Assembly (NCBI GenBank): GCA_009784275.1
Contig: WRCA01000003.1
Coordinates: 38,817 to 70,816 of the forward strand
DNA length: 32,000 bases
Source: Alphaproteobacteria bacterium
Lineage (GTDB): Bacteria > Pseudomonadota > Alphaproteobacteria > Rs-D84
Reading direction: 5' to 3'
Shown here: in pieces, positions 7,309 to 27,455 of the stretch
Position numbering within the stretch: position 1 is the stretch's first letter
Layout of the letters: each line of letters begins with the position of its first letter
Position numbers and translations under genes: made by a program
Notes under the pieces: model-generated
The model's input: the letters and a program-made list of their open reading frames with translations, nothing else
The model's database searches: none
What the model was told of the DNA's origin: nothing

Positions 7309-7432
7309 TGAGGCAAAGAAATCAAAAAAATAAATTTATTAAATTCCTGTGGATAGGCCTGGCCGTGGCGTTGGGGGTTTTGATGCTTATTTCGTTCTCG
7401 CCCACCAGACATGTTACAGAAGTCGTGCTGCA

Positions 7433-8275
7433 ATGAATCATATAGACATTTTTTTAGAGATGTTATCGGCGGAAAAAGGACGCGGTGCAAAGACACTGGA
7501 AGCATACGGCCGCGACTTGCGCATGACCATGGAAGCGGTTGGCGATTTGGGATCAGCAACGACATCGCAGCTGCAAAATTATCTGGCGGGATTGAATGAA
7601 AAACCGGCGAGCATCGCAAGAAAAACCAGCGCTTTGCGCCAGTTTTATAAGTTTTTGAACTTGGAAAAAATAATCTCTGAAAACCCTGCCCTGGGCTTGG
7701 AATTACCGAAAAGACAGAAAAAATTACCGAAATTTTTAACCACGGAAGAGATAGAGTTGTTGATATCGAACGCGGGCGATGTCCGGAATTCCTTGCGTCT
7801 GCGGGCTATGCTGGAATTGCTGTACGCATCGGGTTTGCGGGTATCGGAATTATGCGAATTGCCGCGTTCCGCAATATTGGGCGATAAGTTATTAATACAT
7901 GGTAAAGGCGCGAAAGAACGCATCGTGCCAATGCACACTGGTGCACAGATCGCATTGGAAAAATGGCTGGAAAATTGCCCCGCTTCTAAATATGTATTCC
8001 CCAGCAGTGGCAAAAGCGGCCATATAACGCGCGATGGATTCTTTAAAATCCTGAAGAAATGCGCGGTTTTATCGGGAATTTCGCCAGAAAGGATCAGCCC
8101 GCACGTGCTGCGTCATTCGTTTGCGTCACACTTGTTGGCGGGCGGAGCAAACCTGCGCGCGATACAAATGATGCTGGGGCACGAAGACATCTCTACCACG
8201 CAAATTTATACGCATGTAATGCCAGAAAAGCTGAAAAATGCGGTATATGAACATCATCCATTGGCCAAGAAATGA
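7433..8275 (+). CDS. xerD: site-specific tyrosine recombinase XerD
   Basis: ORF 7349..8275 starts at a GTG. ATG 7433 (MNHIDIFLEMLSAEKGRGAKTLEAYGRDL) matches the usual Xer N-terminus. Catalytic region: ELLYASGLRVSELCEL, HVLRHSFASHLLAGGANLRAIQMMLGHEDISTTQIYTHV. Confidence 0.85.
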   Translation: MNHIDIFLEMLSAEKGRGAKTLEAYGRDLRMTMEAVGDLGSATTSQLQNYLAGLNEKPASIARKTSALRQFYKFLNLEKIISENPALGLELPKRQKKLPKFLTTEEIELLISNAGDVRNSLRLRAMLELLYASGLRVSELCELPRSAILGDKLLIHGKGAKERIVPMHTGAQIALEKWLENCPASKYVFPSSGKSGHITRDGFFKILKKCAVLSGISPERISPHVLRHSFASHLLAGGANLRAIQMMLGHEDISTTQIYTHVMPEKLKNAVYEHHPLAKK

Positions 8276-8781
8276 TAAAGAAATGCGATTTTAAAGGTTG
8301 TGATAAAGCGGGCGTATGTCGTGCCCCTAAATCGCGCGACTTGAAAGAGTATTACTATTTTTGTAAAGAACACGCGGCGGAATATAATAAGAATTGGAAT
8401 TATTACGCCGGCATGACAACGGATGAAATAGAGGAAGACTGGGAACGTGAAACCTTTGGAATCAGCGATAAAGAGCGTGCCGCGCGGGACAAAGCCAATG
8501 CGGAATATGTTACATTTCTGGAGAATTTTCTGACCGGGCGTGATAGTTTTGATCGCGGGGCATCCCAGCGCAAGCCGTCAGTTGCATCAAGAACAGTATC
8601 ATCGGCGTTTGCGGTATTGGACCTGGCGCCGACGGCAACCTGGCGAGAGGTTCAGTCGAAATACAGGGCCCTGGCGAAGAAGTTCCATCCGGACACGGCA
8701 AAGAATAAAAAGTCCGCGGCGGCGGAATTCACCCGCATTTCCACAGCATACGGGGAATTGAAGAAGTTTTTTAAGAAATAA
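8272..8781 (+). CDS. J-domain (DnaJ-like) protein with N-terminal Cys-containing conserved region
   Basis: 169 aa. The C-terminal J domain carries HPD (AFAVLDLAPTATWREVQSKYRALAKKFHPDTAKNK). The N-terminus (CDFKGCDKAGVCRAPKSRDLKEYYYFCKEHAAEYNKNWNYY) matches a small J-protein family I recall as widespread in Alphaproteobacteria. Its ATG overlaps the xerD stop (ATGA at 8272..8275). Confidence 0.85.
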   Translation: MIKKCDFKGCDKAGVCRAPKSRDLKEYYYFCKEHAAEYNKNWNYYAGMTTDEIEEDWERETFGISDKERAARDKANAEYVTFLENFLTGRDSFDRGASQRKPSVASRTVSSAFAVLDLAPTATWREVQSKYRALAKKFHPDTAKNKKSAAAEFTRISTAYGELKKFFKK

Positions 8782-8806
8782 AAACCGCCGTTTCCGGCGG
8801 TTTTTA
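8781..8806. terminator. bidirectional rho-independent terminator between convergent genes
   Basis: AAAACCGCCG-TTTC-CGGCGGTTTTTATT. The 7 bp GC-rich stem (8784..8790 / 8795..8801) is flanked by an A-run on one side and a T-run on the other. It lies exactly between the stop of the J-domain gene (8781) and the stop of the convergent giant gene (8807). Confidence 0.7.
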
Positions 8807-11599
8807 TTAGAACTCCATACCTACACGATATCCAACCTCCGTAGTGTCACCTGCCAGACGGCATTTTATCTTGCTTCCGATGCTGTCATACCATTCTTTA
8901 TATGCTGCATCTTGCTTGTCTTTTTCAAGCTGGTTCGCCTTTTCTTTTATGGCATTGGCTGTTTCAACACCACCCCATATTCCACCGGCAGTTCCCAACG
9001 CACCCAATGTAATCGCACCGGCAGTACCCCAAGCTTTATGCTGCTTTTCACGATCCGACTTAACACCGGCTTCTCGTGCAGTCTTATCTTTCGTCAGTGC
9101 ACTAATCATTCCTCTGATTTTTCCGGCAGTGTTAGCGGCATCATCATCTGATTGCTCTGATTGCTCTTCGCAAGTATAACCAGAGAATTCTCTACCATCA
9201 AGATTGCACATAGCTGGTTCTTTCGCGATTACCTTACTTTTTTTGCCATATTTTTCAGAGCACCAATCCAAATCACGTGCCACAGCATCTGCATTAGTTA
9301 GGCATTGGTTAATTTCTCGCATTTTTTCGTCATTCTTCTGCGCTTTTTTATCACCACTACTGGCGATCTTGTCACCCAGCGTATATCCGCCCCAGGCTCC
9401 CAATCCACCGCCTGCCAGGCCAGCAATGACCCCTACCAGGGAACCAACCTTGTTGGCACGTGCATTATCCTTTTTCACTTCATCTTTTGACCTAGCTTCA
9501 GATTCACGAATTTTTGCTTCTATGTTATCCAAACATGTTTCGGTTAACCATTCCCCACAACCTACAACCAAACCTACATTCTTTTCGCCCCAGAAAGAAT
9601 AGATGCAACCATCAATATTCTTTACAGGTTGATTTTTAATCAATATCGTAAGTGTAGCTTCGCGCTGGCAAGCCCCACCAAAGGTATCTTCGGTCGCTTT
9701 TCGCCTTGTTCCCTGTTTGTCGGTTTGATTCGGCAATGCAGTCCATGCATACCCTTCCCCAGCATCTTTACAAGCAGTCTTGGCTTCATTTGCTTTTCTT
9801 TCAAACATGCTTTGCACGCGCGTGCCTATATCAGCAACCAGAGTTCCAAATATATTACGTTCTTGCTCTGCGCACATTGCAATAAACTTGGCATCCGCAC
9901 TGACTGTTGCAGTGGGCAAGTCACCCAGGGAATATGTATAATTCGGGCTGCAGAATGAAAGCGTGCTGGATGATGACGATGAGGCTGACAACCAAGCATT
10001 TCGTGCGCCACTGGATGTTCCCCAAGAATCTGCACTCGCCCCCGATGATTTCTTTGCATATTCAACGTCGAAAAATTCTCTACAGCTTTTATCTTTCTTT
10101 ACTTCCAGCAAACATAATCCTTTGGCCATTTCTCCGTCAAATCCGCCATTCCAAGCCTTTCCGGTCACAACACCGTTAACAACTGTTTTGCTTTTCATGT
10201 TTTTTGCATCAATACTGGATATAAAGCAAGCGGTATAATCCGGGGCGCATTCATTTGTAACGCAATCTTCTGCCACAGTTTGGCATGCTCGGCGCATATT
10301 AGCAACCATGTCTTCATTAAACATTTCCGACAATTCTGTACTTAGTCCCGAAATCGCGCCAATAGAATCTTGTATCCAAATTTTATCCCATGCCTCCGAT
10401 GGGCTACCGCCCTTACTGACAAAGACATCCAAGCAGCTTTGATTATTTTTAATCACATTTTCGCACTGGGCGGTAATCCCCGCACCTGCTTTGCCTTTTA
10501 TGTCCACTTTGCCGGACTGAACATCTTTGGATAATCCATAACACCGCGCATAACTACCTTCGCCGCAAGCATTAACCGCACAGTTTCGCATTGCGATTTT
10601 ACAAGTATTCGCCGAAGCCAATGCTGCCGTTGCCGCCCATTCTTTTATTCTGGACTGATTCATCTTGAATCGCGCATTAACACCGGTTTCCATTATATTT
10701 CTATATACTCTGTCTATAGAACTACGGTCTATCAGATCGGCTTCTTTTGCCAATGTGCCTTCTACTACCATAAAGCATGATTCATCAGAGCCAATGGTTT
10801 CGCGGCATTGTTCCCTTAAATAGCTATTTACATTGCTGCTGCCCCAACCCAGATTTTTCATATAATTCATTATAATATTGGGATTCAAGCGCAAACCTGT
10901 TTCAGATGAATCAACTATATTCACCATATTATTGGCATCATCATTTGTAAAGCCATCAACATCGATACATTTATGCGGCGAACCGGCACATGCTTGTTTT
11001 ATACAGTCATCCGCAGTTTCGTTACAACTTTTTACAGAATTTGCCGATGCCCAGCTGTTGCCTTCTTTTATCCACATCTGCACCGGGCTGTCCCCCGCAA
11101 CTGCTATATCTTGCAAAGCCGGCGAGAACGAGCGTTTTACAACCACAGATTCTTCTTCGCAAATCGCGCGATTGGCAACAGATGAATCATCACTGGTCGT
11201 TACAGAATTTCCAAACAGCGCCTTTATTCCATCCGCAGGGCATCTAGCCAACTCGTCCTGACACAAAATTCTTTTCTTATTAAATTGCTTTATGTTAGAG
11301 CAAAGCTGAAAATTTTCTTTACAAACATCGCCGCTCCGCAAGCAGCCTTCGTATTCCCGGACGCAATCACTGGTGGAAAATCTTTTCTTCAGTGGTTCCG
11401 CGCAAGTCGCCAACAGTCCGGCATCGACCGAAACCGTGCCGATTGTTCGAATGCCCGAAAGCCCTGCCAAGCTGGGCAGCCGCGCCGCCGTCGCAGGACG
11501 TGCAGTTGGTGTCCCAACATAGCTGACAGCCCCCGCATCACCAAACGAAATGACGGACGCCAACGGCAAAACAAGACCAACAATTAATGCTTTTTTCAT
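8807..11599 (-). CDS. giant cysteine-rich secreted/envelope protein (hypothetical)
   Basis: ORF 8807..11635. I prefer ATG 11599 (MKKALIVGLVLPLASVISFGDAGA, a signal peptide, with an AGGTG SD 5 nt upstream). I count about 38 Cys, including three copies of a C-x6-C-x4-C-x6/7-C module. Two glycine-zipper-like hydrophobic segments lie near the C-terminus (VGSLVGVIAGLAGGGLGAWGG; AWGTAGAITLGALGTAGGIWGG). The protein ends GYRVGMEF. Confidence 0.85.
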   Translation of the reverse strand: MKKALIVGLVLPLASVISFGDAGAVSYVGTPTARPATAARLPSLAGLSGIRTIGTVSVDAGLLATCAEPLKKRFSTSDCVREYEGCLRSGDVCKENFQLCSNIKQFNKKRILCQDELARCPADGIKALFGNSVTTSDDSSVANRAICEEESVVVKRSFSPALQDIAVAGDSPVQMWIKEGNSWASANSVKSCNETADDCIKQACAGSPHKCIDVDGFTNDDANNMVNIVDSSETGLRLNPNIIMNYMKNLGWGSSNVNSYLREQCRETIGSDESCFMVVEGTLAKEADLIDRSSIDRVYRNIMETGVNARFKMNQSRIKEWAATAALASANTCKIAMRNCAVNACGEGSYARCYGLSKDVQSGKVDIKGKAGAGITAQCENVIKNNQSCLDVFVSKGGSPSEAWDKIWIQDSIGAISGLSTELSEMFNEDMVANMRRACQTVAEDCVTNECAPDYTACFISSIDAKNMKSKTVVNGVVTGKAWNGGFDGEMAKGLCLLEVKKDKSCREFFDVEYAKKSSGASADSWGTSSGARNAWLSASSSSSSTLSFCSPNYTYSLGDLPTATVSADAKFIAMCAEQERNIFGTLVADIGTRVQSMFERKANEAKTACKDAGEGYAWTALPNQTDKQGTRRKATEDTFGGACQREATLTILIKNQPVKNIDGCIYSFWGEKNVGLVVGCGEWLTETCLDNIEAKIRESEARSKDEVKKDNARANKVGSLVGVIAGLAGGGLGAWGGYTLGDKIASSGDKKAQKNDEKMREINQCLTNADAVARDLDWCSEKYGKKSKVIAKEPAMCNLDGREFSGYTCEEQSEQSDDDAANTAGKIRGMISALTKDKTAREAGVKSDREKQHKAWGTAGAITLGALGTAGGIWGGVETANAIKEKANQLEKDKQDAAYKEWYDSIGSKIKCRLAGDTTEVGYRVGMEF

Positions 11600-11602
11600 T
11601 CT

Positions 11603-11630
11603 CACACCTACATTTTCATACCTACATTTT
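11603..11630. repeat. tandem 14 bp direct repeat immediately upstream of the giant gene start
   Basis: Plus strand: CACACCTACATTTT (11603..11616) and CATACCTACATTTT (11617..11630), 13/14 identical. In gene orientation these read AAAATGTAGGTATG AAAATGTAGGTGTG AGA ATG. Confidence 0.6.
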
Positions 11631-11668
11631 ATCATAAAAAGATATATAGAAAAAGGGAAAAAGAGAAA

Positions 11669-13432
11669 TTATTTCATCAAACTGTGAACAGCTGCGGCGA
11701 AGTCTGGCGCTTTGGCCAAATAGTTGCCCGATGTCAACATATCCGCGCCCGCATCCCAGCACTGCTTTGCTGTCTCTGGATTTATTCCGCCATCAACGTT
11801 GATTCTAAATTTCAGATTATGCTTCTTTCTGGTATTTGCAAGAGCTGCGACTCGTGACAAAGCCGCCGGCAAAAATTTCTGCCCGCTTGGCCCCGGCACC
11901 ACCGACATAACCGAAACATCGTCCAAGTCCCGCAAGATTGGCGCGATTATATCAATCGGACTTTCGGGGTGCAGCGCGATTCCTGCGCGCTTTCCTGCAG
12001 CCTTTATTTCTCGCAACGCACGCAATACTCCATTTGTACCGCTGGATACGATTATTGTGTCCGCGCCAGCGGCAATTGCCTCAGCCGCCCACTGGGCCGG
12101 ATTCTCGGTCATCAAGTGCACATACAGATGCGCCGTAGTATGCGCGCGAATAAATTTTATCTCGTCAATTCCGCCGAGTATTTTTTCCACATAAAATCCA
12201 TCCATCACCTCTACATGAATTATGCCGATGCCGGCATTTGCGAATTTCGCATAAGTCGCAGCATTGCGCATATCGAAAGACTGGGTGCTGGGCATTATTG
12301 GAATAATTCCGCGATGACGCTTCTTGGTTCTAACTTTGAAGAAAGCAATCACAGCATCGAAAAACTTTTCCCATTTCTTGCGGCGCGCAAGATAGCCTTG
12401 TATTCTGGCGGTTTCGCGATTCCATATAAAATCAGCGAGGGCATTTACCGCCGCAAACGGCCCCAAGTTTTCAACCTTTACGCCAAAAGCTTGCTCTATG
12501 GTATCTGCTAATCCTGGAATACCGGAACCTCCGCCGCTGATAAAGATTTTCTGAACGCGATATTTTTCCAAAGCGGGACTTAATGAAGTCTCTACGACAC
12601 TCATCATCCTGCGGAATATACCCATCGCATTATCGCTGATGTCAAATCTTGAAAATTCATATCTTGCGTCTGCCGGGGTAAACCTGTCCATTTCCGTGGT
12701 TATTAACGTCATCCCTGCGATTTTTAATCTTTCCGCTTCCGACATTGATATATGAAAAGCCTCTGACAATTTCCTGGTAATATCAATCCCGCCAATATCG
12801 AACTTTTTAAGCAGCATCGGACCGCGCGCAGTCCATACTGACACAGTTGTTGATGTTGCGCCAAAATCTATGAACGCCGCAGATTCTTTTGGAGAACGAA
12901 CAGTAGACCCCATCAGAAACATAGGGTCGAAAAAGCCTTCGGATTCCAGATGTGCTTCGCGCAACGCGGATTTCGCAAATGCCATTCCCTCATTAGGATA
13001 AGAAATCGAATGGAACAGAGAATCTAAACTTTTATCAATATGTCCCACCGCGCTGGATACATTTTGAAATCCACCCAGGTCATATCGCAATGGGATGATA
13101 TGCATCGGAAAAAAATCTTCATCCCGCGGCATTATTTGCTCTAAAACATCCTGCGGAAGTATTTTATGTTCGCCGCCCCAACTTGTCTTGCGTGAAAAAA
13201 TCTCGGACCTGACATCACCGAAATTTCCCGTAACATATGCGGAATCAAAACGCGCGCCGATTTGTTCTTCCAGGCTGTCGACCGCGGATTTCACCGCATA
13301 GGCGGCGTCCATTGACTCAAAAAAAACCGTTGCCGAAGACTTTATGCGACCAAAGCTTACACGCGCGCCAACCGCACGTACGCCGGATGATCCGATATCT
13401 AAACACAGAAAAGCCCCGTCAGTCAGATTCAT
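11669..13432 (-). CDS. ftsA: cell division protein FtsA fused to a divergent ribulose-phosphate 3-epimerase-like domain
   Basis: Single 587 aa ORF. Residues ~1-370 are an FtsA-type actin fold (CLDIGSSGVRAV, FIDFGATSTTVSVW, IFISGGGSGIPGLADTIEQAFG). An amphipathic basic helix follows (RRKKWEKFFDAVIAFFKVRTKKR). The last ~210 aa are an Rpe-like TIM barrel (PSTQSFDM, HVEVMDGFYVEK, YVHLM, MSVVPGPSGQKF, NVDGGI). The gene starts 3 nt after the ftsQ stop. Confidence 0.85.
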   Translation of the reverse strand: MNLTDGAFLCLDIGSSGVRAVGARVSFGRIKSSATVFFESMDAAYAVKSAVDSLEEQIGARFDSAYVTGNFGDVRSEIFSRKTSWGGEHKILPQDVLEQIMPRDEDFFPMHIIPLRYDLGGFQNVSSAVGHIDKSLDSLFHSISYPNEGMAFAKSALREAHLESEGFFDPMFLMGSTVRSPKESAAFIDFGATSTTVSVWTARGPMLLKKFDIGGIDITRKLSEAFHISMSEAERLKIAGMTLITTEMDRFTPADARYEFSRFDISDNAMGIFRRMMSVVETSLSPALEKYRVQKIFISGGGSGIPGLADTIEQAFGVKVENLGPFAAVNALADFIWNRETARIQGYLARRKKWEKFFDAVIAFFKVRTKKRHRGIIPIMPSTQSFDMRNAATYAKFANAGIGIIHVEVMDGFYVEKILGGIDEIKFIRAHTTAHLYVHLMTENPAQWAAEAIAAGADTIIVSSGTNGVLRALREIKAAGKRAGIALHPESPIDIIAPILRDLDDVSVMSVVPGPSGQKFLPAALSRVAALANTRKKHNLKFRINVDGGINPETAKQCWDAGADMLTSGNYLAKAPDFAAAVHSLMK

Positions 13433-15016: not shown

Positions 15017-16330
15017 ATGAAAAAAACTTTTGCCTTTTTACTTTTGCCTTTTGCGCTGCTCTGCGCTTGCACACAAATGCAATCCCGCAACCAGCCGCAA
15101 TTCGACACTATCGAGGTTATCGAGAATGTTGTCATAGACGAACGATCTGTGCCTATATTCCCGCGCAAGGCCGCGCTGACCACGGATACCGCGCGTCGGT
15201 TTGCGATAGACTTGCCCAAACGCTGTTCGGTGGACTGGGATAATCAAACAATTTTATCCACACTTCCCGCGCAGCCGGTAGAGATTATCAGGCTGAACAA
15301 AGGCGATGACCTGCCGGAATTTGATGTTGAAAATTATTCTTTCTTGAAAAAAACCGTGCCAGATGTTTTGGAAAAATTATTAAAGGGAACCAGAATAAAA
15401 GTCGTGACGACAGAAAATATGCCGGACCTTATCAGCGGGGATATTAATTCCGGAAACTTGGCCGACGCGATAGAGCTGATCTGCAGATTGGGCAAAGTTT
15501 ATTATTCATATGACGATGCGTCGAAAGAGCTGCGCATAACCAGTCGCGGAAAATGGCTGATGAAAATGCCACAGGACGAATATGTCATAATGGCCATCAT
15601 AGATGCGATGCGCGGCGCAGAAATGCGAAGCTTGCTGACGAACTGGCAAGATAAAACTATATCGTTCGAAGGCAATTATCAAACGGAAAGAGAAGTTCGC
15701 GATATCGTGGCGGATGTTGGCTCCAAGAAATATCTGATCGCCTGGGATATGGATGTTTATCGCGTATATCCGCGAACGGACAATCCGATAATCTGGATGA
15801 ATATGCTGCCCGCGTTTGGCGAAAAGAATGTAAGAATGTCGATACCTGGGGTTGTGGGGCGCACACTTGTGGTCAGCCCGGAAATCAATACTAAAACCCT
15901 GCAAGATTTCTTGGCGCAGCAAAGTAATGTGGTACTGATTTCACAGGGAACATTTGTGATACCAAATGGTTGGCAAAGTCGATTTGATATCGGGCAATGT
16001 TCGCGCGAAGACAGACTGGAAACAGATTTGATTATCGGCGCCACTGGAAAATATGGAAATTATGCGGATATGATGAAATTGGATGCAAAGGTAGTACTAC
16101 GTACACATCGCGGTGAACTGGCGTCGTACAATGTTCCAACAACATTAGGCGACAATTATGTGATAATCGGAATCCCAACGCACAGTTTTGTAACAGATCC
16201 GGAAACATTAATCAGTCCATTCGCGGAACTAGTTATATTCATGAGCCCCAGATTAATCTCGATCATAGACCGGAACGAGCCCGCCGAGAAATTATCGGGC
16301 GATGCGTTAAGAGAGTATCTAGAGGACTAA
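15017..16330 (+). CDS. lipoprotein with STN/N0-like region and possible secretin-like C-terminal domain (hypothetical)
   Basis: 437 aa starting MKKTFAFLLLPFALLCAC|TQ (lipobox). The middle region VPDVLEKLLKGTRIKVVTTENMPDLISGDINSGNLADAIELICRLGKVYYSYDDASKELRIT resembles secretin/TonB short N-terminal domains. The C-terminus (LAQQSNVVLISQGTFVIPNGWQSRFDIGQ ... NVPTTLGDNYVIIGIP ... ELVIFMSPRLI) resembles the secretin core pattern. The CDS call is solid; the function is tentative. Confidence 0.85.
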   Translation: MKKTFAFLLLPFALLCACTQMQSRNQPQFDTIEVIENVVIDERSVPIFPRKAALTTDTARRFAIDLPKRCSVDWDNQTILSTLPAQPVEIIRLNKGDDLPEFDVENYSFLKKTVPDVLEKLLKGTRIKVVTTENMPDLISGDINSGNLADAIELICRLGKVYYSYDDASKELRITSRGKWLMKMPQDEYVIMAIIDAMRGAEMRSLLTNWQDKTISFEGNYQTEREVRDIVADVGSKKYLIAWDMDVYRVYPRTDNPIIWMNMLPAFGEKNVRMSIPGVVGRTLVVSPEINTKTLQDFLAQQSNVVLISQGTFVIPNGWQSRFDIGQCSREDRLETDLIIGATGKYGNYADMMKLDAKVVLRTHRGELASYNVPTTLGDNYVIIGIPTHSFVTDPETLISPFAELVIFMSPRLISIIDRNEPAEKLSGDALREYLED

Positions 16331-16334
16331 AGTT

Positions 16335-17588
16335 ATGTTTTCACGCTTAGAAAAGAAAATAGCCTTCCGTTATTTGCGGGCAAAGGGGCGCGGCTTTGGC
16401 AGCGTCATTTCATGGGTGTCATTGCTGGGAATTGCCTTGGGCGTTGCGACCTTGATAGTCGTGATGTCTGTCATGGGCGGATTCCATGACACCTTGCTTT
16501 CGCGCATAATCGGAATGAATGGACATGTAGTTGTATATCACCAAGGTGGCGCAATCGAAGACTATGATTTTCTGATTGAAAAAATGAAACAGAATAAAGT
16601 CGTGGCTGCAAATATTACAGGAATAGTTCCAATACTGGAAGGCCAGGTAATGGTAACCAACGACGGAAATAATTCCGGCGCAATGGTGCGCGGAATCAGA
16701 ATGACGGATCTGGCGAATAAGTTCGCAAACGAAACCAAAGTCTATGGCACACCGATTACGGAAGTAAAAGAAGGTCAGCTGGTTATGGGCAGGGCCTTGG
16801 CCAGAAATTTAAAAATCACATTGATGGATAATGCAACATTGGTATCAGCAAACGGTGGCACAGCAACGGCGTTTGGAACCATGCCGCGAATACAGTCTTA
16901 TCCTGTGGCAACCAGCTTCTTTGCAGGAATGTATGAGTATGATTCTGGCTATATCTTTATGCCATTGGAAACCGCGCAGAAATATTTGAACGCGCCGAGC
17001 GGGGTTTCGCATATCGACCTGTTCTTGAAAAATCCAGAATCTACCGCACGGGTGCGTGACGCGTTACAAGCCAGCCTGCCCGACGGATTTGTGGTGCGCG
17101 ATTGGCGTGATTTGAATCGCGGTTTTGTCGGCGCATTGCAAGTCGAAAGTAATGTGATGTTTCTTATCTTGATGCTTATCGTAATCGTTGCAGCGTTTAA
17201 TATAGTCTCAAGTCTTGTAATGCTTGTAAAAGATAAATCACGCGATATAGCAGTCTTGCGTACATTCGGCGTTTCACGCAAAAGCATGATGAAAATATTT
17301 ATTCTGGCGGGCAGCAGCATTGGAGTAATCGGCGCGTTCTTTGGAACATTGCTGGGTCTGCTGGTTGCGAAGTATATCGAACCTATACGACAATTCTTCC
17401 AGTGGTTAACAAGTCGCGATTTATTCCCCGCGGAATTGTATTACCTTTCAGAATTGCCGAACAAAATAGAATTCTGGAACGTGGCGGGAATTGCGTTTGT
17501 CGCGGTGGCATTGGCGTTTCTTGCAACATTATATCCGGCTTGGAAAGCCGCCAAAACCGACCCAGTGGAAGTGCTAAGGAATGAATAA
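16335..17588 (+). CDS. lipoprotein-releasing ABC transporter permease, LolC/LolE family
   Basis: 417 aa with a typical N-terminus (AFRYLRAKGRGFGSVISWVSLLGIALGVATLIVVMSVMGGF), a periplasmic loop and a C-terminal FtsX-like TM bundle. A GAGGA SD lies upstream, and lolD follows downstream. Confidence 0.92.
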   Translation: MFSRLEKKIAFRYLRAKGRGFGSVISWVSLLGIALGVATLIVVMSVMGGFHDTLLSRIIGMNGHVVVYHQGGAIEDYDFLIEKMKQNKVVAANITGIVPILEGQVMVTNDGNNSGAMVRGIRMTDLANKFANETKVYGTPITEVKEGQLVMGRALARNLKITLMDNATLVSANGGTATAFGTMPRIQSYPVATSFFAGMYEYDSGYIFMPLETAQKYLNAPSGVSHIDLFLKNPESTARVRDALQASLPDGFVVRDWRDLNRGFVGALQVESNVMFLILMLIVIVAAFNIVSSLVMLVKDKSRDIAVLRTFGVSRKSMMKIFILAGSSIGVIGAFFGTLLGLLVAKYIEPIRQFFQWLTSRDLFPAELYYLSELPNKIEFWNVAGIAFVAVALAFLATLYPAWKAAKTDPVEVLRNE

Positions 17589-18156
17589 AACGGAGGAACT
17601 TTTTGATATTTATAATCAAGACGGAACCAAAACAGGACGTATAGCGACAATGAAGGAGGTTATTGCAGAAGGACTAATTATAAATACCGCAAATGTATTT
17701 ATTGTAAATTCTTTAAATCAAGTTCTTTTGCACAAGGATGGAAAACCATCGCATTTATCTTTTAATAAATGGAGGTGTTCTGTCGCCGGAAAGAATAGTG
17801 CTGGCAATGACACATTGGAAACCGCGCGCCGCGAAACATTGGAAGAACTTGGACTTGATATTCCAAAAGATAAATTCCGGTTAATAAAAACGCGTTTTTA
17901 TGATGATGTCGACAGATACAAATTCCTGGTTGATGTTTATGTTGTGGGGAATATTGACAAATCAGAGGGGGGGGTAAATATTTCCTTTTCGATAAACGAT
18001 ATGAAAATAAACAAGGATGAAATTGCGGAAGTAAAATGGTTTAATCAAGACTATTTGCGTAATTGGAAAGAAAATGGCCTTGATGCGTATAACGGAAAGG
18101 GTAGAATTTTCGAAACCCATCTAAACGATTTGCTAGAATGGCTTGATAAAAAATAG
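17581..18156 (+). CDS. NUDIX-family hydrolase
   Basis: 191 aa. The Nudix box core is RRETLEELGL, preceded by GKNSAGNDTLETA. The N-terminus (ELFDIYNQDGTKTGR) resembles many Nudix/IDI-like enzymes. It overlaps the lolC/E stop by 8 nt. GC is visibly lower than in its neighbours. Confidence 0.8.
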   Translation: MNKTEELFDIYNQDGTKTGRIATMKEVIAEGLIINTANVFIVNSLNQVLLHKDGKPSHLSFNKWRCSVAGKNSAGNDTLETARRETLEELGLDIPKDKFRLIKTRFYDDVDRYKFLVDVYVVGNIDKSEGGVNISFSINDMKINKDEIAEVKWFNQDYLRNWKENGLDAYNGKGRIFETHLNDLLEWLDKK

Positions 18157-18166
18157 AGATAAAAAA

Positions 18167-18877
18167 ATGACATCGATATTGAAATCTTTGCAGAGTGTAA
18201 AAAAGCGTGCATCAGTGCTATCCGTGCGCGATATAAAGAAGACTTTTATGGAAGGCGGCCAACCCTTACATATTCTTCGCGGCGGCGGATTTGACCTTAT
18301 GCGTGGGGAAATCATCGCGCTGGTGGGACCATCTGGCTGTGGAAAGTCAACTTTGCTGCAATGCGTGGGATTGTTGGAAAGACCAAGCGGGGGGCAAATC
18401 ATTATCGCCGGCACGCCAACGCATAAAATGACCGAAGACCAACGCACGGCAATTCGTCGTACGAAGTTGGGGTTTGTTTATCAGCGTCATAATTTGCTGG
18501 AAGATTTCACAGCGCTTGAAAATGTAATGCTGCCGATGCTTGCGAATGGAATGGAAGAGGACGAGGCCAAAATCCGCGCAAAGAAATTATTAAAAGCCGC
18601 AAATGTTCTGCATCGCGCAAGCCACCGTCCAGGCGAAATGTCCGGCGGGGAACAACAGCGCACTGCTGTCGCGCGTTCCCTTGCTAATGAACCGGAAATA
18701 GTCCTTGCGGACGAGCCAACAGGTTCGCTTGACCCAGCGCATGCCGCGGGTGTTTTTGATTTACTTTTGAACTTAACAAAGCAAACGCGCATGTCAATGT
18801 TGTTTGTTACGCATGATATGAATCTGGCTAAACGTGCAGATAGAATTATTACGATCAAGAATGGAATAGTGGGCTAG
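18167..18877 (+). CDS. lolD: lipoprotein-releasing system ATP-binding protein LolD
   Basis: ORF 18143..18877. ATG 18167 avoids overlap with the NUDIX gene. Motifs present: Walker A GPSGCGKST, signature MSGGEQQR and Walker B VLADEPTGSLD. Confidence 0.92.
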   Translation: MTSILKSLQSVKKRASVLSVRDIKKTFMEGGQPLHILRGGGFDLMRGEIIALVGPSGCGKSTLLQCVGLLERPSGGQIIIAGTPTHKMTEDQRTAIRRTKLGFVYQRHNLLEDFTALENVMLPMLANGMEEDEAKIRAKKLLKAANVLHRASHRPGEMSGGEQQRTAVARSLANEPEIVLADEPTGSLDPAHAAGVFDLLLNLTKQTRMSMLFVTHDMNLAKRADRIITIKNGIVG

Positions 18878-22177: not shown

Positions 22178-22630
22178 TTACATCCTATTGAAATATAATA
22201 CATTTTTGAGCGGCCATTGTTTCATAAACGCACGAACTTCTTTTTCAAGCACTGGATCAAGGCCCTTATCAAACTCACTTTTCCTAACCCACATATAGAC
22301 AATTGCATCGAAACCGTCTTTGTCATAAGGAAAAATATAAAAACAGCCCAGACATACTGATTCATCCGGCGACATAACAGTATATGCGAACGAAGTTCTT
22401 TCCTGGAATTCCTTTTGATGCCAGCCCAGATCTATCAAATCCTGTTCTAATGAAATATCAGCCTTTGGCCATGTAGATCCCGGCCCAAATACACCTTGCA
22501 AATGGTCGATAGAAGTGACAACCGCATCATAATCTTTCACGACATCATTTATTGTTAGCATCCTTGCCTTGATTTTATCGGCAAGAAATCCATCTGGAAT
22601 AATAAAGTTGTCAGGTATAAATTTTTTCAT
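22178..22630 (-). CDS. hypothetical protein, possibly GNAT-like acetyltransferase family
   Basis: 150 aa clean ORF, tightly packed between rsmI (4 nt overlap) and engB (2 nt gap). The pattern DYDAVVTSIDHLQGVFGPGSTWP...DLGWHQKEFQERTSFAYTVMSPDESVCLGCFYIFP resembles a family I recall being annotated as GNAT-like. The function is tentative. Confidence 0.75.
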   Translation of the reverse strand: MKKFIPDNFIIPDGFLADKIKARMLTINDVVKDYDAVVTSIDHLQGVFGPGSTWPKADISLEQDLIDLGWHQKEFQERTSFAYTVMSPDESVCLGCFYIFPYDKDGFDAIVYMWVRKSEFDKGLDPVLEKEVRAFMKQWPLKNVLYFNRM

Positions 22631-23427
22631 CTTACGCCCTTTAACACTTTCTCATATGCTTCCGATTTTGATAGACCCGTTCGGACGGAAATTTCAGCGG
22701 CGGCGGTTTTAGTATTCTGCGCACCTTTTACAACATCACGCACAATTTCGCCGATTTCTTCGTCAGACATTTTTGTTTCGGGTGCTGGTTCTATTACAAT
22801 TACGATTTCTCCGCGCCATTCTTTTCGTGGCATTAATTCCGCCGGATATCCTATAACTGTCTCTTCATGAATCTTTGTAATCTCTCGCACTATCGCAACG
22901 CGACGCTCTGGCATGATACGCGCAAGAATCGCCAAGGTATCCGAAACCCGCGCCGGGCTTTCATAGTAAATTATCGTATGGCGAATTTTATTGTCTTCCC
23001 GCAAATGCTTTTCATCTTTGAAAAATCCAAGAAAACTAAACCTGTCGGTTGGAAATCCAGACAACGCCAGCGCAGAAATCGCGGCCACAGGCCCCGGAAT
23101 TACAAACACAGGCAAACTTGCTGCGCGGCATTCACGTACCAACCTGAATCCTGGATCGCTGATGGTAGGCATCCCAGAATCGCTGACAATTGCAATCGCC
23201 ATGCCATTTTGAATCTTTGCAACCAGGTCGCTTGCGACTTCACGCTCGTTATGTTCATGGAATGCCATGCGCTTGGTTTTTATATTAAAATGTGCCGCCA
23301 ATTTACCGAATACACGGGTATCTTCGCAAGCAATCAAATCGACATCACGCAGAACCTCTATCGCCCGCGGCGACATATCCGACAGGTTCCCTATCGGCGT
23401 CCCTACGATATACAAACCGATTTGCAT
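22627..23427 (-). CDS. rsmI: 16S rRNA (cytidine1402-2'-O)-methyltransferase RsmI
   Basis: ORF 22627..23454. I prefer ATG 23427 (MQIGLYIVGTPIGNLSDMSPRAIEVLRDVDLIACEDTR), which has an AAGGA SD 6 nt upstream. It is divergent from an lpoA-like gene, as in the E. coli rsmI(yraL)/lpoA(yraM) pair. Confidence 0.92.
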   Translation of the reverse strand: MQIGLYIVGTPIGNLSDMSPRAIEVLRDVDLIACEDTRVFGKLAAHFNIKTKRMAFHEHNEREVASDLVAKIQNGMAIAIVSDSGMPTISDPGFRLVRECRAASLPVFVIPGPVAAISALALSGFPTDRFSFLGFFKDEKHLREDNKIRHTIIYYESPARVSDTLAILARIMPERRVAIVREITKIHEETVIGYPAELMPRKEWRGEIVIVIEPAPETKMSDEEIGEIVRDVVKGAQNTKTAAAEISVRTGLSKSEAYEKVLKGVR

Positions 23428-23472
23428 TGCGAATCCTTTGTGGTTATAATACACGAATGTAAGGGAATTTCA

Positions 23473-25035
23473 ATGTTTATAAAAAAGATTTTTATGGCCT
23501 GCTGCCTGCTGTTTGCGCTCTGTTCCTGCGGCACCCAGCAACAGTGGGGCACCCGCTATGGCCAAGGACCGGTGGGTGACGCGATAGAGCTGGATGCGCC
23601 ATCCCGCATATATGGCGGCGAAAGGAATATAGCGGTAATACTGCCGGATGGGGCCCTAGGCAAATCTGTGCGAACCGCTGTTGAAATGGCATTTATCCAA
23701 AAGCGCGCAAGCAATGTAAATGTTAATTTTATGGATTTGTCCGGCAGTGCTGATACACGCATGATCGCGATGGAAAACGCATTGAATCAAAGCCCGGACT
23801 TGATTATTGGACCTATATTTGCGGAAGACGCGGACATATTGCGTAATCTTAAATCATCGCGACTGCCGGTATTGTCTTTTACCTCTGACGCGACAGCATT
23901 GGGCAACGGAATTATGACCATGTCATTAATGCCTGCGCAAAGCGTCGAAACAATCGTTCGCCGCATGCCGACTGAAAACAAGCGGGAATTGCTGATCCTT
24001 GCGCCAGATAACGTATCCGGATATATTATGGGAAATGCGGCGCTCGATTCCGCATCAATCTATGGTATGCGTATTGCCGGATTGTATTATTATAAATCGG
24101 GGAATATGGATAGCATGAAGCATGCCGCCGAAGACGCCACTATGTTCAACGCCCGCAGCAATGCCAATACCCGTGCAAAAGAAATCCTTTCAGATATCCT
24201 TATGAAAAAGGAAGTCTCTGCCCCTGAAAAAGCTTTTGTATCCGCACAATTGGATGAAAGGAATAAGTCCGATACAATCGGCGATGTTCCGTATGATGCG
24301 GTCCTGTTCTTGGGGAACGCGGCGGACTCCAAGGCATTAGGGTCTTTCTTGCGGTATTATGACGCACCGGCAAAAAGGGTAAAGTTTTATGGAACCGCCA
24401 TGTGGGATAATGATGCGATGTTTCGCGATATGACATTCAGCGGCGCCAGCTATGCGGCGCTGCCCGCGATTTCGCCAGAGTTTGCAAATGCTTACCGCGA
24501 GATTACCGATACCGATCCGGAAAGAATAAGCTCCATGGGATATGACGCGGCAATGCTGGCAATACGCGCATTGGGGTCGGAAAATAGCGAGATGGAATTC
24601 TTGATGGATCCGTCGGGATTTCGCGGACTGGACGGACTAATAAGACTACGCCCGAATGGCACATCGGAACGCGCTTTGCAGGTAATGACCTTGGACGCCA
24701 GCGGAGCACCTAAAATAGCGGCATATGCGGCGACGAATTTTATAAAACCGCTTTATATGGTGACGGGCCAGAACAGATCAAGACCTTCGGAAATAAGATT
24801 GACCGCAGGGGTTAATCCTTTGGATTATATAAAATTGCCGGCCAGCGTGCGCGGACAGTACAGCGCGAAGACATACAGACAAAACGCTGACGTGCCACGC
24901 CCGATGCAAACCCAAACCGAAGAAGTAACAATATTGCCAGAAGACGATTCAGAACCGATAATCGATACAGAGTTCGAACCAATCGAATTAGAATCCGTCA
25001 GTAGAGTTTTGGTGGATGAGGTGCAGGTTAGATAA
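23473..25035 (+). CDS. penicillin-binding protein activator LpoA-like lipoprotein (periplasmic-binding-protein type I fold)
   Basis: ORF 22867..25035. Its 5' 606 nt are antisense to rsmI, so I use in-frame ATG 23473 (MFIKKIFMACCLLFALCSC|G, lipobox; AAGGGA SD). PBP-like motifs are present: IAVILPDGALGKSVRTAVEMAF, PDLIIGPIF. An acidic C-terminal tail follows. Confidence 0.85.
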   Translation: MFIKKIFMACCLLFALCSCGTQQQWGTRYGQGPVGDAIELDAPSRIYGGERNIAVILPDGALGKSVRTAVEMAFIQKRASNVNVNFMDLSGSADTRMIAMENALNQSPDLIIGPIFAEDADILRNLKSSRLPVLSFTSDATALGNGIMTMSLMPAQSVETIVRRMPTENKRELLILAPDNVSGYIMGNAALDSASIYGMRIAGLYYYKSGNMDSMKHAAEDATMFNARSNANTRAKEILSDILMKKEVSAPEKAFVSAQLDERNKSDTIGDVPYDAVLFLGNAADSKALGSFLRYYDAPAKRVKFYGTAMWDNDAMFRDMTFSGASYAALPAISPEFANAYREITDTDPERISSMGYDAAMLAIRALGSENSEMEFLMDPSGFRGLDGLIRLRPNGTSERALQVMTLDASGAPKIAAYAATNFIKPLYMVTGQNRSRPSEIRLTAGVNPLDYIKLPASVRGQYSAKTYRQNADVPRPMQTQTEEVTILPEDDSEPIIDTEFEPIELESVSRVLVDEVQVR

Positions 25036-25061: not shown

Positions 25062-25556
25062 ATGAAAAAATTGATATTTGGTGTTTTTCTATCTTTTTTG
25101 TGTGCTTGTGCTCATGTTGAGCATGATATTGAAAATATAAAACCCAATGAAGCTGGATTTGATGATAGTTTTGTAAACAAAATTTTCAGTATTTCTTGCA
25201 AGGGTACCGATGGTGCCGACCCAAAAGACGTTAGCACAAAATGTCGAGAATATGCTTCTAAATTTGCCTTTGAAAAAGGATATTCGTATTTTTCTGTGTT
25301 GGACGAAAATAGTGGTTCTAATAAATCCATTGGAAGTTACACAACTACAACCCCAGTAACTACATATTCCAACAGCGGTGGACACTACGCCTATGGATAT
25401 GGGACATCAACCACATATGTTCCGCAAACACATATTTACAGCACGACAAGCCACTATAAAAACTATGCATTCGTTCTGATAAATGAAAATGAATTAAAAC
25501 AATGGAAAAATTATTTCAAGGTTTCGGATTATTATATCCCAAAAGAATCACAATAA
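25062..25556 (+). CDS. lipoprotein, Thr/Tyr/Ser-rich C-terminal half (hypothetical)
   Basis: 164 aa starting MKKLIFGVFLSFLCAC|AH (lipobox). It contains a low-complexity stretch, YTTTTPVTTYSNSGGHYAYGYGTSTTYVPQTHIYSTTSHY. GC is about 30 percent in the first 100 nt by hand count. Its 3' end overlaps convergent rluD by 9 nt. Confidence 0.75.
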   Translation: MKKLIFGVFLSFLCACAHVEHDIENIKPNEAGFDDSFVNKIFSISCKGTDGADPKDVSTKCREYASKFAFEKGYSYFSVLDENSGSNKSIGSYTTTTPVTTYSNSGGHYAYGYGTSTTYVPQTHIYSTTSHYKNYAFVLINENELKQWKNYFKVSDYYIPKESQ

Positions 25557-26501
25557 GCTTTGCAGCTCTTTCATGTCTTCCGGCAGTTTTGCTTTGAATT
25601 TCATCTGCTCGCCAGTTGTGGGATGTACGAATTCCAGAACTTCGGCATGCAACATCTGTCCTTGATGAGTCTTTAAAAATTCCAAAAGTTCAGGATTTTT
25701 CACACTGCCTAGGCGTGCATTCCCGCGGCCGTACAAAGGATCACATACAACCGGAAAGCCGTGCGCGGAAAGGTGCACACGAATCTGATGTGTTCGGCCC
25801 GTGAACAAAGTGCATCGCATTTTCGAAATGCCCGCATCAGTCCAAACATTTAAAACCTCTGCCAGTGTCTTTGCTTCTTTTCCCCCGCGATTAAGCATAG
25901 ACATCTTTTGCCGATTGCGTGTTGACCGGCCAATATTGCCTTCTATATCTGCCTCTGTCCAATTCGGAACACCCCAAACAAAGGCAATATATTTCCGAGT
26001 TAAATCATGTTCAGCAAAAACCTTTACCAGCGCACGAAATGCCGTATCAGACTTTGCCAAAATAACAACCCCGCTGGTGTCTTTATCAAGGCGATGCACA
26101 ACCCCCGGCCGTAATTCACCGCCCAATATTGACAATTTCGTATGCGCTAAAACGCTGTGGACCAAGGTATCAGCCTCTCGCCCCGCCCCTGGATACATTG
26201 CAACGCCGCGTGGTTTGTTTACCACAATAACATCATCATCTTCAAACAAAATTTCTAATTTAATAGAAGAAGAGGTATCAAATACAAAAGAAGTCGTAGA
26301 TGTTTTTTCTGGAATGATTACCTCGACAACATCGCCTTCTCTTAATTTAGCCGATAATTTTACTTCTTTTTGATTTTGCTTTATTTCGAATTTTTGAATT
26401 TCGTTGCGGGAAAATTCCGGCATTTTCAAAGCTAAAAATTTATCAAGCCGCAAACCAATATCAGATTCCATGGCGGTAAAAATTCTTGGCTGCTCATTCA
26501 T
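25548..26501 (-). CDS. rluD: RluA-family 23S rRNA pseudouridine synthase (RluD-like)
   Basis: 317 aa. N-terminal S4-like region (RLDKFLA). Catalytic motif HRLDKDTSGVVILAKS, plus TGRTHQIRVHL. Confidence 0.92.
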   Translation of the reverse strand: MNEQPRIFTAMESDIGLRLDKFLALKMPEFSRNEIQKFEIKQNQKEVKLSAKLREGDVVEVIIPEKTSTTSFVFDTSSSIKLEILFEDDDVIVVNKPRGVAMYPGAGREADTLVHSVLAHTKLSILGGELRPGVVHRLDKDTSGVVILAKSDTAFRALVKVFAEHDLTRKYIAFVWGVPNWTEADIEGNIGRSTRNRQKMSMLNRGGKEAKTLAEVLNVWTDAGISKMRCTLFTGRTHQIRVHLSAHGFPVVCDPLYGRGNARLGSVKNPELLEFLKTHQGQMLHAEVLEFVHPTTGEQMKFKAKLPEDMKELQSLL

Positions 26502-26964
26502 TCCAATTTTTGCCCTTGGTGCAATCCTGTAATTTTATGGTGATGTTTCGCCCTTTGCCGGATGGAATATCGCAGATAATTATCCCCGTGGTAGTATTTT
26601 GAAATGCATCGCGTGGAACTTCGCGCCAAGCAAAGCGCACTTGTTCTGGCCGTTGCACACAACTTAATCCCATGGATGCATTACTATCCAGCGCAGCGGT
26701 TCTTGACGGGGAAATCCACTGACGCGCGTCTTCCGCCTGACCTGTGCATGGGAATGAATCCAAGAAATATATTTCCATGCCCCTGGACCCGATAGAGTTA
26801 TCGCGCACAAAACTCAAATTAAATTGCGCATAACGCAGCCCTGTAACGCTTTCCCAATCTGTGCTGGTTGAAAACACGCGCGGACAGAGGGTTCCCGGGG
26901 ACGCCGCATTGACCGAAAAAATAAAAAGAGAGAAAAAGAGAAAAAGAGAAAAAAATCTATTCAT
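26494..26964 (-). CDS. small secreted Cys-containing protein (hypothetical)
   Basis: 156 aa starting MNRFFSLFLFFSLFIFSVNA|ASP (signal peptide). The mature part has six Cys. The start is 3 nt after the upstream stop, and the stop overlaps the rluD start by 8 nt (ATGAATGA). Confidence 0.7.
   Translation of the reverse strand: MNRFFSLFLFFSLFIFSVNAASPGTLCPRVFSTSTDWESVTGLRYAQFNLSFVRDNSIGSRGMEIYFLDSFPCTGQAEDARQWISPSRTAALDSNASMGLSCVQRPEQVRFAWREVPRDAFQNTTTGIIICDIPSGKGRNITIKLQDCTKGKNWNE
26930..26953. repeat. three perfect tandem copies of GAGAAAAA inside a 33 nt all-purine tract
   Basis: 26930..26937, 26938..26945 and 26946..26953 are each GAGAAAAA. The surrounding tract 26923..26955 is purine-only. 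On the minus strand it encodes the FSLFLFFSLF part of the signal peptide of the 26494..26964 gene. Confidence 0.7.
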
Positions 26965-26967
26965 GTT

Positions 26968-27450
26968 TTATTCCTTAAATTCCACTCCGATTTTCGAAGC
27001 ACGGACCGGCGTATCTTTAACTGTTACCGAAAAAGAAATTGATTCGCCTGCATCCAATAAAGGCGCTGGTGGTGGGAAAACCTGCGAGGATAACTCCGCC
27101 CCGTTTGCATCCTTTAATACAACAACAACATCAGGCACGCCATTTAATTTGTCCGACTTGTTGGCTATAACGCCAGAAACAACCATGCCGTCAGCCGTCA
27201 TAACAGCAGAGTCCATTTTAATGCCCAACGGTCCTTGTGTTTCGCGCGGCATGTAACGCACTACGGCGATAAATGACAGCACTGCCAAAACCAAAATCGC
27301 GCAAGCCAGCATAAAAATCCAAATACGCGAATTACGGCGCGGCCGGCTCTCGCGCCAAACATGACCACAAACCGCACATTCAAAACTGCGCGCACCATTG
27401 GCATCCTTAACCGAGTATTCTACTTTGCAAAAAGGACAAACTGTTTTCAT
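26968..27450 (-). CDS. MJ0042-type zinc-ribbon membrane protein with DUF3426-like periplasmic domain
   Basis: 160 aa. The N-terminal zinc ribbon is CPFCKVEYSV...FECAVCGHVW, followed by one TM (IWIFMLACAILVLAVLSFIAVV). A beta-rich domain follows (VVSGVIANKSDKLNGVPDVVVVLKDANGAELSSQVFPPPAPLLDAGESISFSV), as in DUF3426 proteins. The start is 5 nt after the upstream stop. Confidence 0.8.
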   Translation of the reverse strand: MKTVCPFCKVEYSVKDANGARSFECAVCGHVWRESRPRRNSRIWIFMLACAILVLAVLSFIAVVRYMPRETQGPLGIKMDSAVMTADGMVVSGVIANKSDKLNGVPDVVVVLKDANGAELSSQVFPPPAPLLDAGESISFSVTVKDTPVRASKIGVEFKE

Positions 27451-27455
27451 GGGAT

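Follow-up and report, generated by a model that had tools for sequence, protein, structure and literature searches.

We analysed a 32,000-nt stretch of contig WRCA01000003.1 (Alphaproteobacteria bacterium, assembly GCA_009784275.1, positions 38,817 to 70,816), called the window below, and focused on one minus-strand gene for a cysteine-rich protein. An initial annotation, made from the letters alone, had described an exported product of about 930 residues with about 38 cysteines and had not recognised its family. The gene does encode 930 residues, with a signal peptide in both the query and its relatives, and exactly 38 of the residues are cysteine (4.09%, compared with 0.93% in the 25 other open reading frames (ORFs) of the window). 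Judged by sequence and profile searches, the protein founds an undescribed family in uncultured gut and environmental Alphaproteobacteria. It is very probably Sec-exported and extracytoplasmic over its whole length, a multi-domain protein held by about 19 intramolecular disulfides. Table 1 lists the features of the gene and its flanks.

Table 1 Features of the cysteine-rich gene in window coordinates. Secondary structure is predicted. aa, amino acid residues; nt, nucleotides; AF2, AlphaFold2; pLDDT, predicted local distance difference test.
Feature	Position	Strand	Basis or remark
Whole gene	8807..11599	-	930 codons + stop; product identical to public protein P0001
Candidate extended -10 (TGnTAAAAT)	11626-11633	-	putative; absent from consensus promoter scan list
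Shine-Dalgarno-like AGGTG	11605..11609	-	5-9 nt 5' of ATG (upstream sequence read)
Signal peptide, aa 1-24 (MKKALIVGLVLPLASVISFGDAGA, A-G-A cleavage site)	11528..11599	-	hydrophobicity; AxA sites across family
Conserved mature N-terminus motif, aa 25-45 (..TARPATAARLPSL)	11465..11527	-	family conservation; disordered in AF2
Flexible low-complexity linker, aa 46-60	11420..11464	-	17% identity, 0-32 aa in family; pLDDT <40
N-module, aa 61-170, 8 Cys (66, 79, 86, 93, 100, 113, 120, 147)	11090..11419	-	pLDDT 79-97
Repeat 1, aa 171-310, helical, 6 Cys (192, 199, 204, 211, 265, 275)	10670..11089	-	
Repeat 2, aa 311-426, helical, 6 invariant Cys (333, 340, 345, 353, 379, 389)	10322..10669	-	
Repeat 3, aa 427-520, 6 invariant Cys (439, 446, 451, 458, 496, 506)	10040..10321	-	
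Domain 4, aa 521-717: long helix, beta-sheet, proximal helices; odd Cys number (7 in query)	9449..10039	-	
Glycine zipper 1, aa 718-742 (VGSLVGVIAGLAGGGLGAWGGYTLG)	9374..9448	-	
Hypervariable inter-zipper head, aa 743-855: two ~37-aa helices + beta-hairpin, 4 Cys	9035..9373	-	
Glycine zipper 2, aa 856-878 (AWGTAGAITLGALGTAGGIWGGV)	8966..9034	-	
Return helix, aa 879-906, + conserved beta tail, aa 907-930, with single Cys913	8810..8965	-	
Bidirectional intrinsic terminator, perfect (AAAAACCGCCGtttcCGGCGGTTTTT)	8780..8806	.	common to cysteine-rich gene and convergent DnaJ-domain gene

The four-cysteine module C-x6-C-x4-C-x6/7-C that the initial annotation had pointed out is present three times, beginning at residues 192 (CNETADDCIKQACAGSPHKC), 333 (CKIAMRNCAVNACGEGSYARC) and 439 (CQTVAEDCVTNECAPDYTAC), and the related C-x6-C-x6-C-x6-C stretch near the N-terminus begins at residue 79. 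Even one such module appeared in only 85 of 20,000 shuffled versions of the protein. A C-x9-C pair (265/275, 379/389 and 496/506), overlooked before, comes after every module, and the true repeat unit therefore has six cysteines. Profile-profile comparison aligned the repeats over about 68 columns (repeats 1 and 2, E 3.6e-4; repeats 2 and 3, E 6.9e-4), and the full-length relatives (73 of the 75 matches of at least 850 aa) all contained a signal peptide and three modules, no more and no fewer. These results support reading the module as a true repeated domain. Loss of the cysteine pattern in orthologues had been named as a reason to doubt the initial claim, and the pattern proved to be kept: 30 of the 38 cysteines are present in at least 69 of the 78 sequences of the family alignment, and the twelve in repeats 2 and 3, plus Cys610, are invariant. 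Distant relatives contain the N-module in two copies, with 12 cysteines.

A word-indexed search recovered 13 relatives (33-69% identity), all named only "hypothetical" and all from metagenome-assembled genomes (MAGs) labelled Alphaproteobacteria or Rickettsiales. An exhaustive profile search over 1.84 billion cluster representatives extended the family to 183 members at E<=1e-3, 89 of them at E<=1e-30 and most 900-1200 aa long. None of the 183 has a functional name beyond "hypothetical protein", and all come from MAGs or metagenomes, with gut, termite gut and groundwater as sources; relatives with a named source are again labelled Alphaproteobacteria or Rickettsiales. Four contigs with the family gene and its syntenic neighbours (L008, L009, L011 and L013) are titled "uncultured Muribaculaceae bacterium" in Third Party Annotation assemblies, probably a taxonomic mislabel of the MAGs. 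The query and the full-length relatives share the features by which we define the family: the signal peptide, a TARPS..SRMPT motif, three C-x6-C-x4-C-x5-8-C...C-x9-C repeats, two glycine zippers and a C-terminal CYIGG..YGD tail. The protein evolves quickly, being 46-47% identical where SecD of the same genomes or contigs is 80-83% identical.

Neither the single sequence nor the 78-sequence profile had a significant match in Pfam, NCBIfam, PADLOC, PHROGs or the Protein Data Bank (PDB) sequences, as the initial annotation's failure to recognise a family had foreshadowed. The one PHROGs match was weak and non-significant (E 0.38), and Pfam gave nothing at E<=10 for the query or at E<=1 for the 13 relatives. 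The annotation had allowed that a clear match to a well-characterised family would remove the novelty; sequence, profile and structure searches yielded no such match, and we found no description of the family in the literature searched. Tblastn against plasmid and phage collections found no relatives and the guanine-plus-cytosine (GC) content of the gene is in line with its surroundings, so a mobile origin was rejected. On this sequence evidence the feature is real, the family is undescribed and its architecture matches nothing in the libraries searched, while its function is inferred. A protein of about 1000 residues, conserved across a widespread clade of uncultured gut, termite and groundwater Alphaproteobacteria, lies outside the coverage of Pfam, NCBIfam and the PDB.

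Cysteine counts were strongly constrained domain by domain. Among the 73 full-length relatives the N-module had an even count in 70 (mostly 8 or 12), and six cysteines were found in repeat 1 in 67, in repeat 2 in 70 and in repeat 3 in all 73. Domain 4 was odd in 72/73. Among the 78 aligned sequences, the C-terminal tail had exactly one cysteine in 74, and the inter-zipper segment had an even count (0, 2, 4, 6 or 8) in 76, with neither number nor spacing conserved. This parity points to disulfides within the domains that lie on either side of each zipper, and to a bond between domain 4 and the tail. Since Cys913 is single in the tail and domain 4 is odd, the tail would pair with domain 4 and close the base of the helical arm described below. 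We infer the disulfide connectivity, including the Cys913-domain 4 bond, from these counts. Two other arrangements were rejected: a C766-C913 disulfide, because the inter-zipper segment already has an even count by itself and the odd count is that of domain 4, and a zinc site between the zippers (CxxC...C...C in close relatives), because the cysteine number ranges from 0 to 8 and the spacing is unconserved.

The even count would place the inter-zipper segment in an oxidising compartment, which argues against an inner-membrane protein with two transmembrane helices and a cytoplasmic loop. The positive-inside rule lent no support to a cytoplasmic loop between the zippers either (K/R 3.4 on the N side vs 1.9 on the C side at zipper 1, and 3.1 vs 2.8 at zipper 2). 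The "C-terminal anchors" of the initial annotation thus need revision. The two zippers are there, but instead of anchoring a tail they stand at either end of a hypervariable segment that contains disulfides, and the last part of the chain is predicted to return and pair with domain 4.

The charged C-terminal region, its two glycine-rich hydrophobic segments and the GYRVGMEF end were all as first described, and 40% or so of residues 751-852 are charged (20 K/R and 20 D/E of 102). Across the family the zippers comprise 21 +/- 2.4 uncharged residues with a mean Kyte-Doolittle hydropathy of 1.4-1.5, are 27-31% glycine with A, L, V, I and T and <1% proline, and have tryptophan at their edges. A Gly-Gly spacing of 4 (GxxxG) was the most enriched relative to within-segment shuffles (z 7.7 and 7.9, values inflated by the relatedness of the sequences, though the helical periodicity is clear nonetheless), and spacings of 2 and 6 were depleted. 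By these sequence features the zippers are genuine, and they share the GxxxG periodicity and uncharged length of about 20 residues of the Gly-zipper_Omp/SlyB type. The outer-membrane beta-signal that had been read into the C-terminus did not hold up. Phenylalanine is the last residue in the query and a few relatives, most of the others end in K, E, D or Q, and the conserved motif (...CYIGG..VG.YGD.I..) lies before this variable end. With no conserved aromatic end and a mainly helical AlphaFold2 model that contains no barrel, an outer-membrane beta-barrel was rejected.

AlphaFold2 with the 78-sequence alignment gave a model with a mean pLDDT of 79.2 and a predicted template modelling score of 0.61, and pLDDT exceeded 90 over most of residues 61-460; a first model built from only 13 sequences had a mean pLDDT of 64.7. 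Foldseek with the 78-sequence model found no match in the PDB or BFVD. The model as a whole, like its body, is predominantly helical, and it has two small sheets. Its second half runs from helix 568-612 through sheet 617-680 of domain 4 and helices 687-718 into zipper 1 and helix 751-787, and then through beta-hairpin 788-812 and helix 821-858 into zipper 2, helix 884-906 and strands 911-929. This symmetric order in the model suggests something like a long antiparallel hairpin, both strands of which are broken at equal height by an uncharged belt.

The head between the zippers is the least conserved part of the protein. Its mean pairwise identity across the family is 13%, with lengths of 39-284 aa, compared with 29-41% identity for the other domains, and in close pairs it is 31-42% identical and has indels, against 62-99% for the domains from the N-module to domain 4. 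Nei-Gojobori ratios of non-synonymous to synonymous divergence (dN/dS) were 0.39-0.68 in the head vs 0.01-0.15 elsewhere, including the N-terminal domains, rough values with dS around 1 or saturated. The mature N-terminus behaves in the opposite way. Its family consensus, TARPSV..SR(M/L)PT(L/M), is followed by a linker that is S/T-rich in most relatives. Two paralogues at locus L018 that are 39% identical overall differ over codons 26-51 by 10 synonymous and 0 non-synonymous changes. The peptide thus appears to be under strong purifying selection though AlphaFold leaves it disordered, as would be expected of a docking motif. The motif did not occur outside the family in the other ORFs of the window or in 18 fetched loci. 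The L018 paralogues (P0025 and P0014) also share a 220-nt inverted repeat, 93% complementary, at 7394-8167, which spans the 5' untranslated region (UTR) and the first ~56 codons. Its two arms enclose 334 bp of AT-rich DNA, and the paralogues are identical over the first 75 coding nt and over 53 nt of the UTR. Gene conversion could account for this tract, or it may be an invertible promoter that switches between variants.

An alternative in-frame ATG at 11635 would give a product of 942 aa instead of the 930 aa that begin with MKKAL. The start at 11599 is favoured because of the AGGTG Shine-Dalgarno sequence, the MKK or MRIKK starts of the homologues and the public annotation of 930 aa. Just 5' of this start codon, an 11-nt direct repeat (AAAATGTAGGT) occurs in two copies 14 nt apart (11606-11630, minus strand) and overlaps both the candidate -10 and the Shine-Dalgarno sequence. 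No RNA families were found in the window with Rfam.

In the window and close relatives the gene order is a 128-aa ORF, ftsQ, an ftsA::rpe fusion and the cysteine-rich gene, and beyond the latter lie a convergent DnaJ-domain gene, a XerC/D-type recombinase and lptF/G. The fusion (11669-13432, minus strand) encodes 587 aa with an FtsA/PilM-like actin-fold N-terminal half and a complete ribulose-phosphate 3-epimerase C-terminal half (Pfam FtsA 8.4e-12, Ribul_P_3_epim 2.7e-43) and is kept 3' of ftsQ in all close relatives. It is not followed by ftsZ, and the cysteine-rich gene holds the usual ftsZ position of dcw clusters. In the P0014 lineage the family gene also adjoins ftsQ-ftsA::rpe, together with a divergent paralogue. 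P0021 is directly downstream of a ybeY::lnt fusion, a 606-aa gene (L017 6125-7945) that joins the rRNA maturation endoribonuclease YbeY to apolipoprotein N-acyltransferase (LNT_N + CN_hydrolase), and P0047 and P0051 follow a cluster of large pilin-like proteins and rluD. No conserved operon partner emerged family-wide from the comparison of the query group, P0014, P0021, P0047 and P0051. The gene is usually single-copy and chromosomal, with housekeeping, envelope and division genes as neighbours; relatives' loci encode a penicillin-binding protein (PBP), MraY, FtsW and MurG, and lipopolysaccharide (LPS) machinery is also present.

Several other arrangements in the window stand out. Five uncharacterised genes (490, 425, 442, 160 and 156 aa) and an RluD-like pseudouridine synthase occupy 25548-31485 (minus strand), with weak pilin signatures (Shufflon_N 1.2e-4; N_methyl 0.03; Zn_ribbon_4 with DUF3426), and in two distant members (L015 and L016) the same cluster is found directly upstream of the cysteine-rich gene. 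At 15017-16330 and 16335-18877 (both plus strand), a gene for a 437-aa protein without a Pfam match is followed by genes for MacB_PCD/FtsX permease, NUDIX and ABC ATPase proteins. This set resembles LolCDE with one diverged permease, is divergent from the ftsQ operon and is conserved in relatives. A TP_methylase-family gene (22627-23454, minus strand) and a 722-aa LppC/Peripla_BP_6 (LpoA-like) gene (22867-25035, plus strand) overlap by ~590 nt on opposite strands, and the true start of the latter is probably further downstream.

Our best overall explanation, with a probability of roughly 40%, is that paired zippers embedded in the outer membrane as in SlyB expose the variable head. The N-module, the three six-cysteine repeats and the helix/beta domain 4 would each be stapled by disulfides of their own, and most of this structure would be helical. 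Domain 4 would carry a long, projecting arm of antiparallel helices, with a GxxxG zipper of ~21 residues interrupting each strand at a matching distance from the base. The hypervariable coiled-coil/beta-hairpin head would lie beyond this belt, after which the chain would return and its C-terminal beta tail would be disulfide-locked to domain 4 via Cys913. The N-terminal peptide, on its flexible S/T-rich tether, may dock to peptidoglycan or another envelope protein, so that the whole could serve as a structural envelope tether that also displays a fast-evolving surface element. We consider it probable, though far from secure, that the two zippers pack together as a membrane-embedded helical pair. 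That this membrane is the outer one, with the conserved cysteine-rich body in the periplasm and the variable head at the surface, is a more tentative step; it is favoured because both faces of the zipper belt appear oxidising and because SlyB and YfgH set a precedent. The glycine-zipper helices of these two proteins span the outer membrane (bioRxiv 10.64898/2025.12.22.696046; PMC13067283).

A number of points weigh against this explanation. The Cys-Cys distances and the in-register pairing of the zippers derive solely from the order of secondary-structure elements, and pLDDT is below 50 in both zippers. The query zippers have no Pfam glycine-zipper match (E<=10), and only 2 of 10 homologue zipper segments reach 17.7-18.5 bits against Gly-zipper_Omp, for which the cut-off is 25; both of them align to a single helix of the two-helix model. 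There is no lipobox, unlike in SlyB, and we know of no pathway that moves a hydrophilic, disulfide-bonded segment of 39-284 aa across the outer membrane between two alpha-helices. Head dN/dS is below 1 with dS near saturation and shows no positive selection, so the hypervariability could reflect relaxed constraint on a spacer. Gene context varies across the family and points to no partner, and the family is known from uncultured organisms only, with its membrane location predicted.

The two readings closest to ours keep the zippers and move them elsewhere. A soluble or peripheral periplasmic scaffold, a disulfide-stabilised lattice or spacer in which the glycine-rich belts act as oligomerisation zippers or hinges, would suit a protein all of whose parts appear extracytoplasmic, whose zippers are weakly hydrophobic with low pLDDT and which has neither an outer-membrane targeting signal nor a lipobox. 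We judge it unlikely, given that the conserved length, GxxxG periodicity, lack of proline and charge, and edge tryptophans typify membrane-embedded zippers rather than linkers, and that it leaves the hypervariability beyond the belt unexplained. Still less likely is an inner-membrane protein with two transmembrane helices, in which the cysteine-rich N-terminal domain and short tail would be periplasmic and the 105-aa charged inter-zipper segment cytoplasmic, the literal sense of the "C-terminal anchors". Both ~21-aa uncharged segments are of transmembrane-like length, the odd cysteine count of the N-terminal domain and the single tail cysteine are also compatible with it, and the position after ftsQ-ftsA in two sub-lineages would suit a divisome-linked bitopic protein. 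On the other hand, the even inter-zipper cysteine counts, free in number and spacing, fit disulfides and not a metal site; the loop side has no excess of K/R; the hydrophobicity is modest (Kyte-Doolittle 1.0-1.5); and it would be unusual for the most variable domain to be the cytoplasmic one.

Quite improbable, in our view, is a secreted pore-forming toxin or adhesin whose arm inserts into a foreign membrane, like the ClyA/XaxA/YaxA-type alpha-pore-forming toxins or VacA-like glycine-zipper channels. The protein does evolve fast, the family profile matched its C-terminal arm weakly to YaxA/XaxA in the PDB (E 0.087-0.095) and Foldseek with the 13-sequence model listed ClyA (E 5.6-6.1), but all these matches are non-significant and ClyA was no longer listed with the better model. 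We set aside the YaxA/XaxA rows of the profile search, along with a prion-protein row, as compositional (glycine-rich hydrophobic and coiled-coil). The hydrophobic belts are also in the middle of the arm and not at its tip, and the loci examined contain no linked gene for a partner subunit or a secretion system. Searches for defence and toxin families gave no match, and the gene, most often a single chromosomal copy in synteny with housekeeping genes, has no relatives on plasmids or phages. The initial annotation had instead likened the protein to the cysteine-rich envelope proteins of some obligate intracellular bacteria. In a Chlamydia-like version of this analogy, intermolecular disulfides would stiffen the envelope of an intracellular bacterium as a lattice. 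The likeness of a disulfide-rich exported protein stands, with a very high cysteine content (4.1%) for an envelope protein and some source MAGs labelled Rickettsiales. Homology does not, as no match was detected in Pfam, chlamydial cysteine-rich families included, and such a lattice seems highly doubtful: cysteine parity closes within each domain and molecule, pointing to intramolecular bonds, the PBP, MraY, FtsW and MurG genes in relatives' loci imply peptidoglycan in hosts that also have LPS machinery, and the gut, termite and groundwater sources give no sign of an intracellular lifestyle.

The outer-membrane explanation can be extended to a new class of alpha-helical outer-membrane-spanning protein, in which a split zipper pair brings the hypervariable, disulfide-bonded head to the surface, a disulfide-stapled periplasmic body of ~650 residues and a docking peptide link the outer membrane with a further layer of the envelope, and, in some lineages, the 5' inverted repeat of paralogues could switch variants (antigenic or phase variation). 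We regard this fuller version as rather unlikely. If the zippers do span the outer membrane, the protein would be a rare alpha-helical outer-membrane protein showing a large variable domain, and the question of its insertion would arise. Bacteria that are common in animal guts would then have in it a candidate surface antigen or phage receptor. Otherwise it still offers a new and well-defined helical repeat domain stapled by disulfides, along with a conserved peptide motif at its N-terminus. In either case, domain-wise cysteine parity is a tool-independent sign that every part, the inter-zipper segment included, sits in an oxidising compartment.

Among known systems, the twin Cx9C/CHCH and saposin-like six-cysteine domains are helix-turn-helix units pinned by cysteine pairs at fixed spacing. 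As a working analogy, each repeat here has one C-x9-C across a helix-turn-helix and six cysteines in ~100 aa of helices, but the pattern (C-x6-C-x4-C-x6/7-C...C-x9-C) differs and Foldseek gave no PDB match. The chlamydial proteins OmcB and OmcA are exported, unusually cysteine-rich envelope proteins thought to give mechanical stability via disulfides. Our protein differs from them in having no sequence similarity, a helical body built of repeats, a parity indicative of intramolecular bonds and hosts with peptidoglycan genes. With ClyA, XaxA and YaxA it shares a long antiparallel helical arm with hydrophobic segments, on which the weak matches fall, and it differs in that those matches have E >= 0.087, a large head follows the mid-arm belts, the body is large and cysteine-rich and there is no linked partner toxin.

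The nearest comparison is with the glycine-zipper outer-membrane lipoproteins SlyB, YfgH, OsmB and YiaD (Pfam glycine zipper 2TM and Gly-zipper_Omp; Rickettsia 17-kDa antigen family), which likewise have two GxxxG helices per protein, rich in G/A/L/V and with ~21 uncharged residues. In the outer membrane SlyB assembles into transmembrane complexes with the shape of a ring (bioRxiv 10.64898/2025.12.22.696046; PMC13067283). The differences are nonetheless considerable. Our family has no lipobox or lipid anchor, with a query signal peptide that contains no cysteine, AxA signal peptidase I sites throughout and, in relatives, a ..VSEIC at the signal peptide that is not a lipobox. Where the SlyB type has a contiguous hairpin of ~45 aa with a tight turn, the zippers here are 39-284 aa apart around a hypervariable disulfide-bonded insert, and a cysteine-rich periplasmic body of ~650 aa stands in place of a small beta domain. 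The query segments scored nothing against the Pfam glycine-zipper models, and SlyB was not retrieved by the PDB profile or zipper-segment searches. Because the profile score, the contiguous hairpin and the lipobox are all lacking, we do not consider the protein a SlyB-type member. By analogy, it may all the same work as the SlyB type does, with a similar proposed role in stabilising the envelope.

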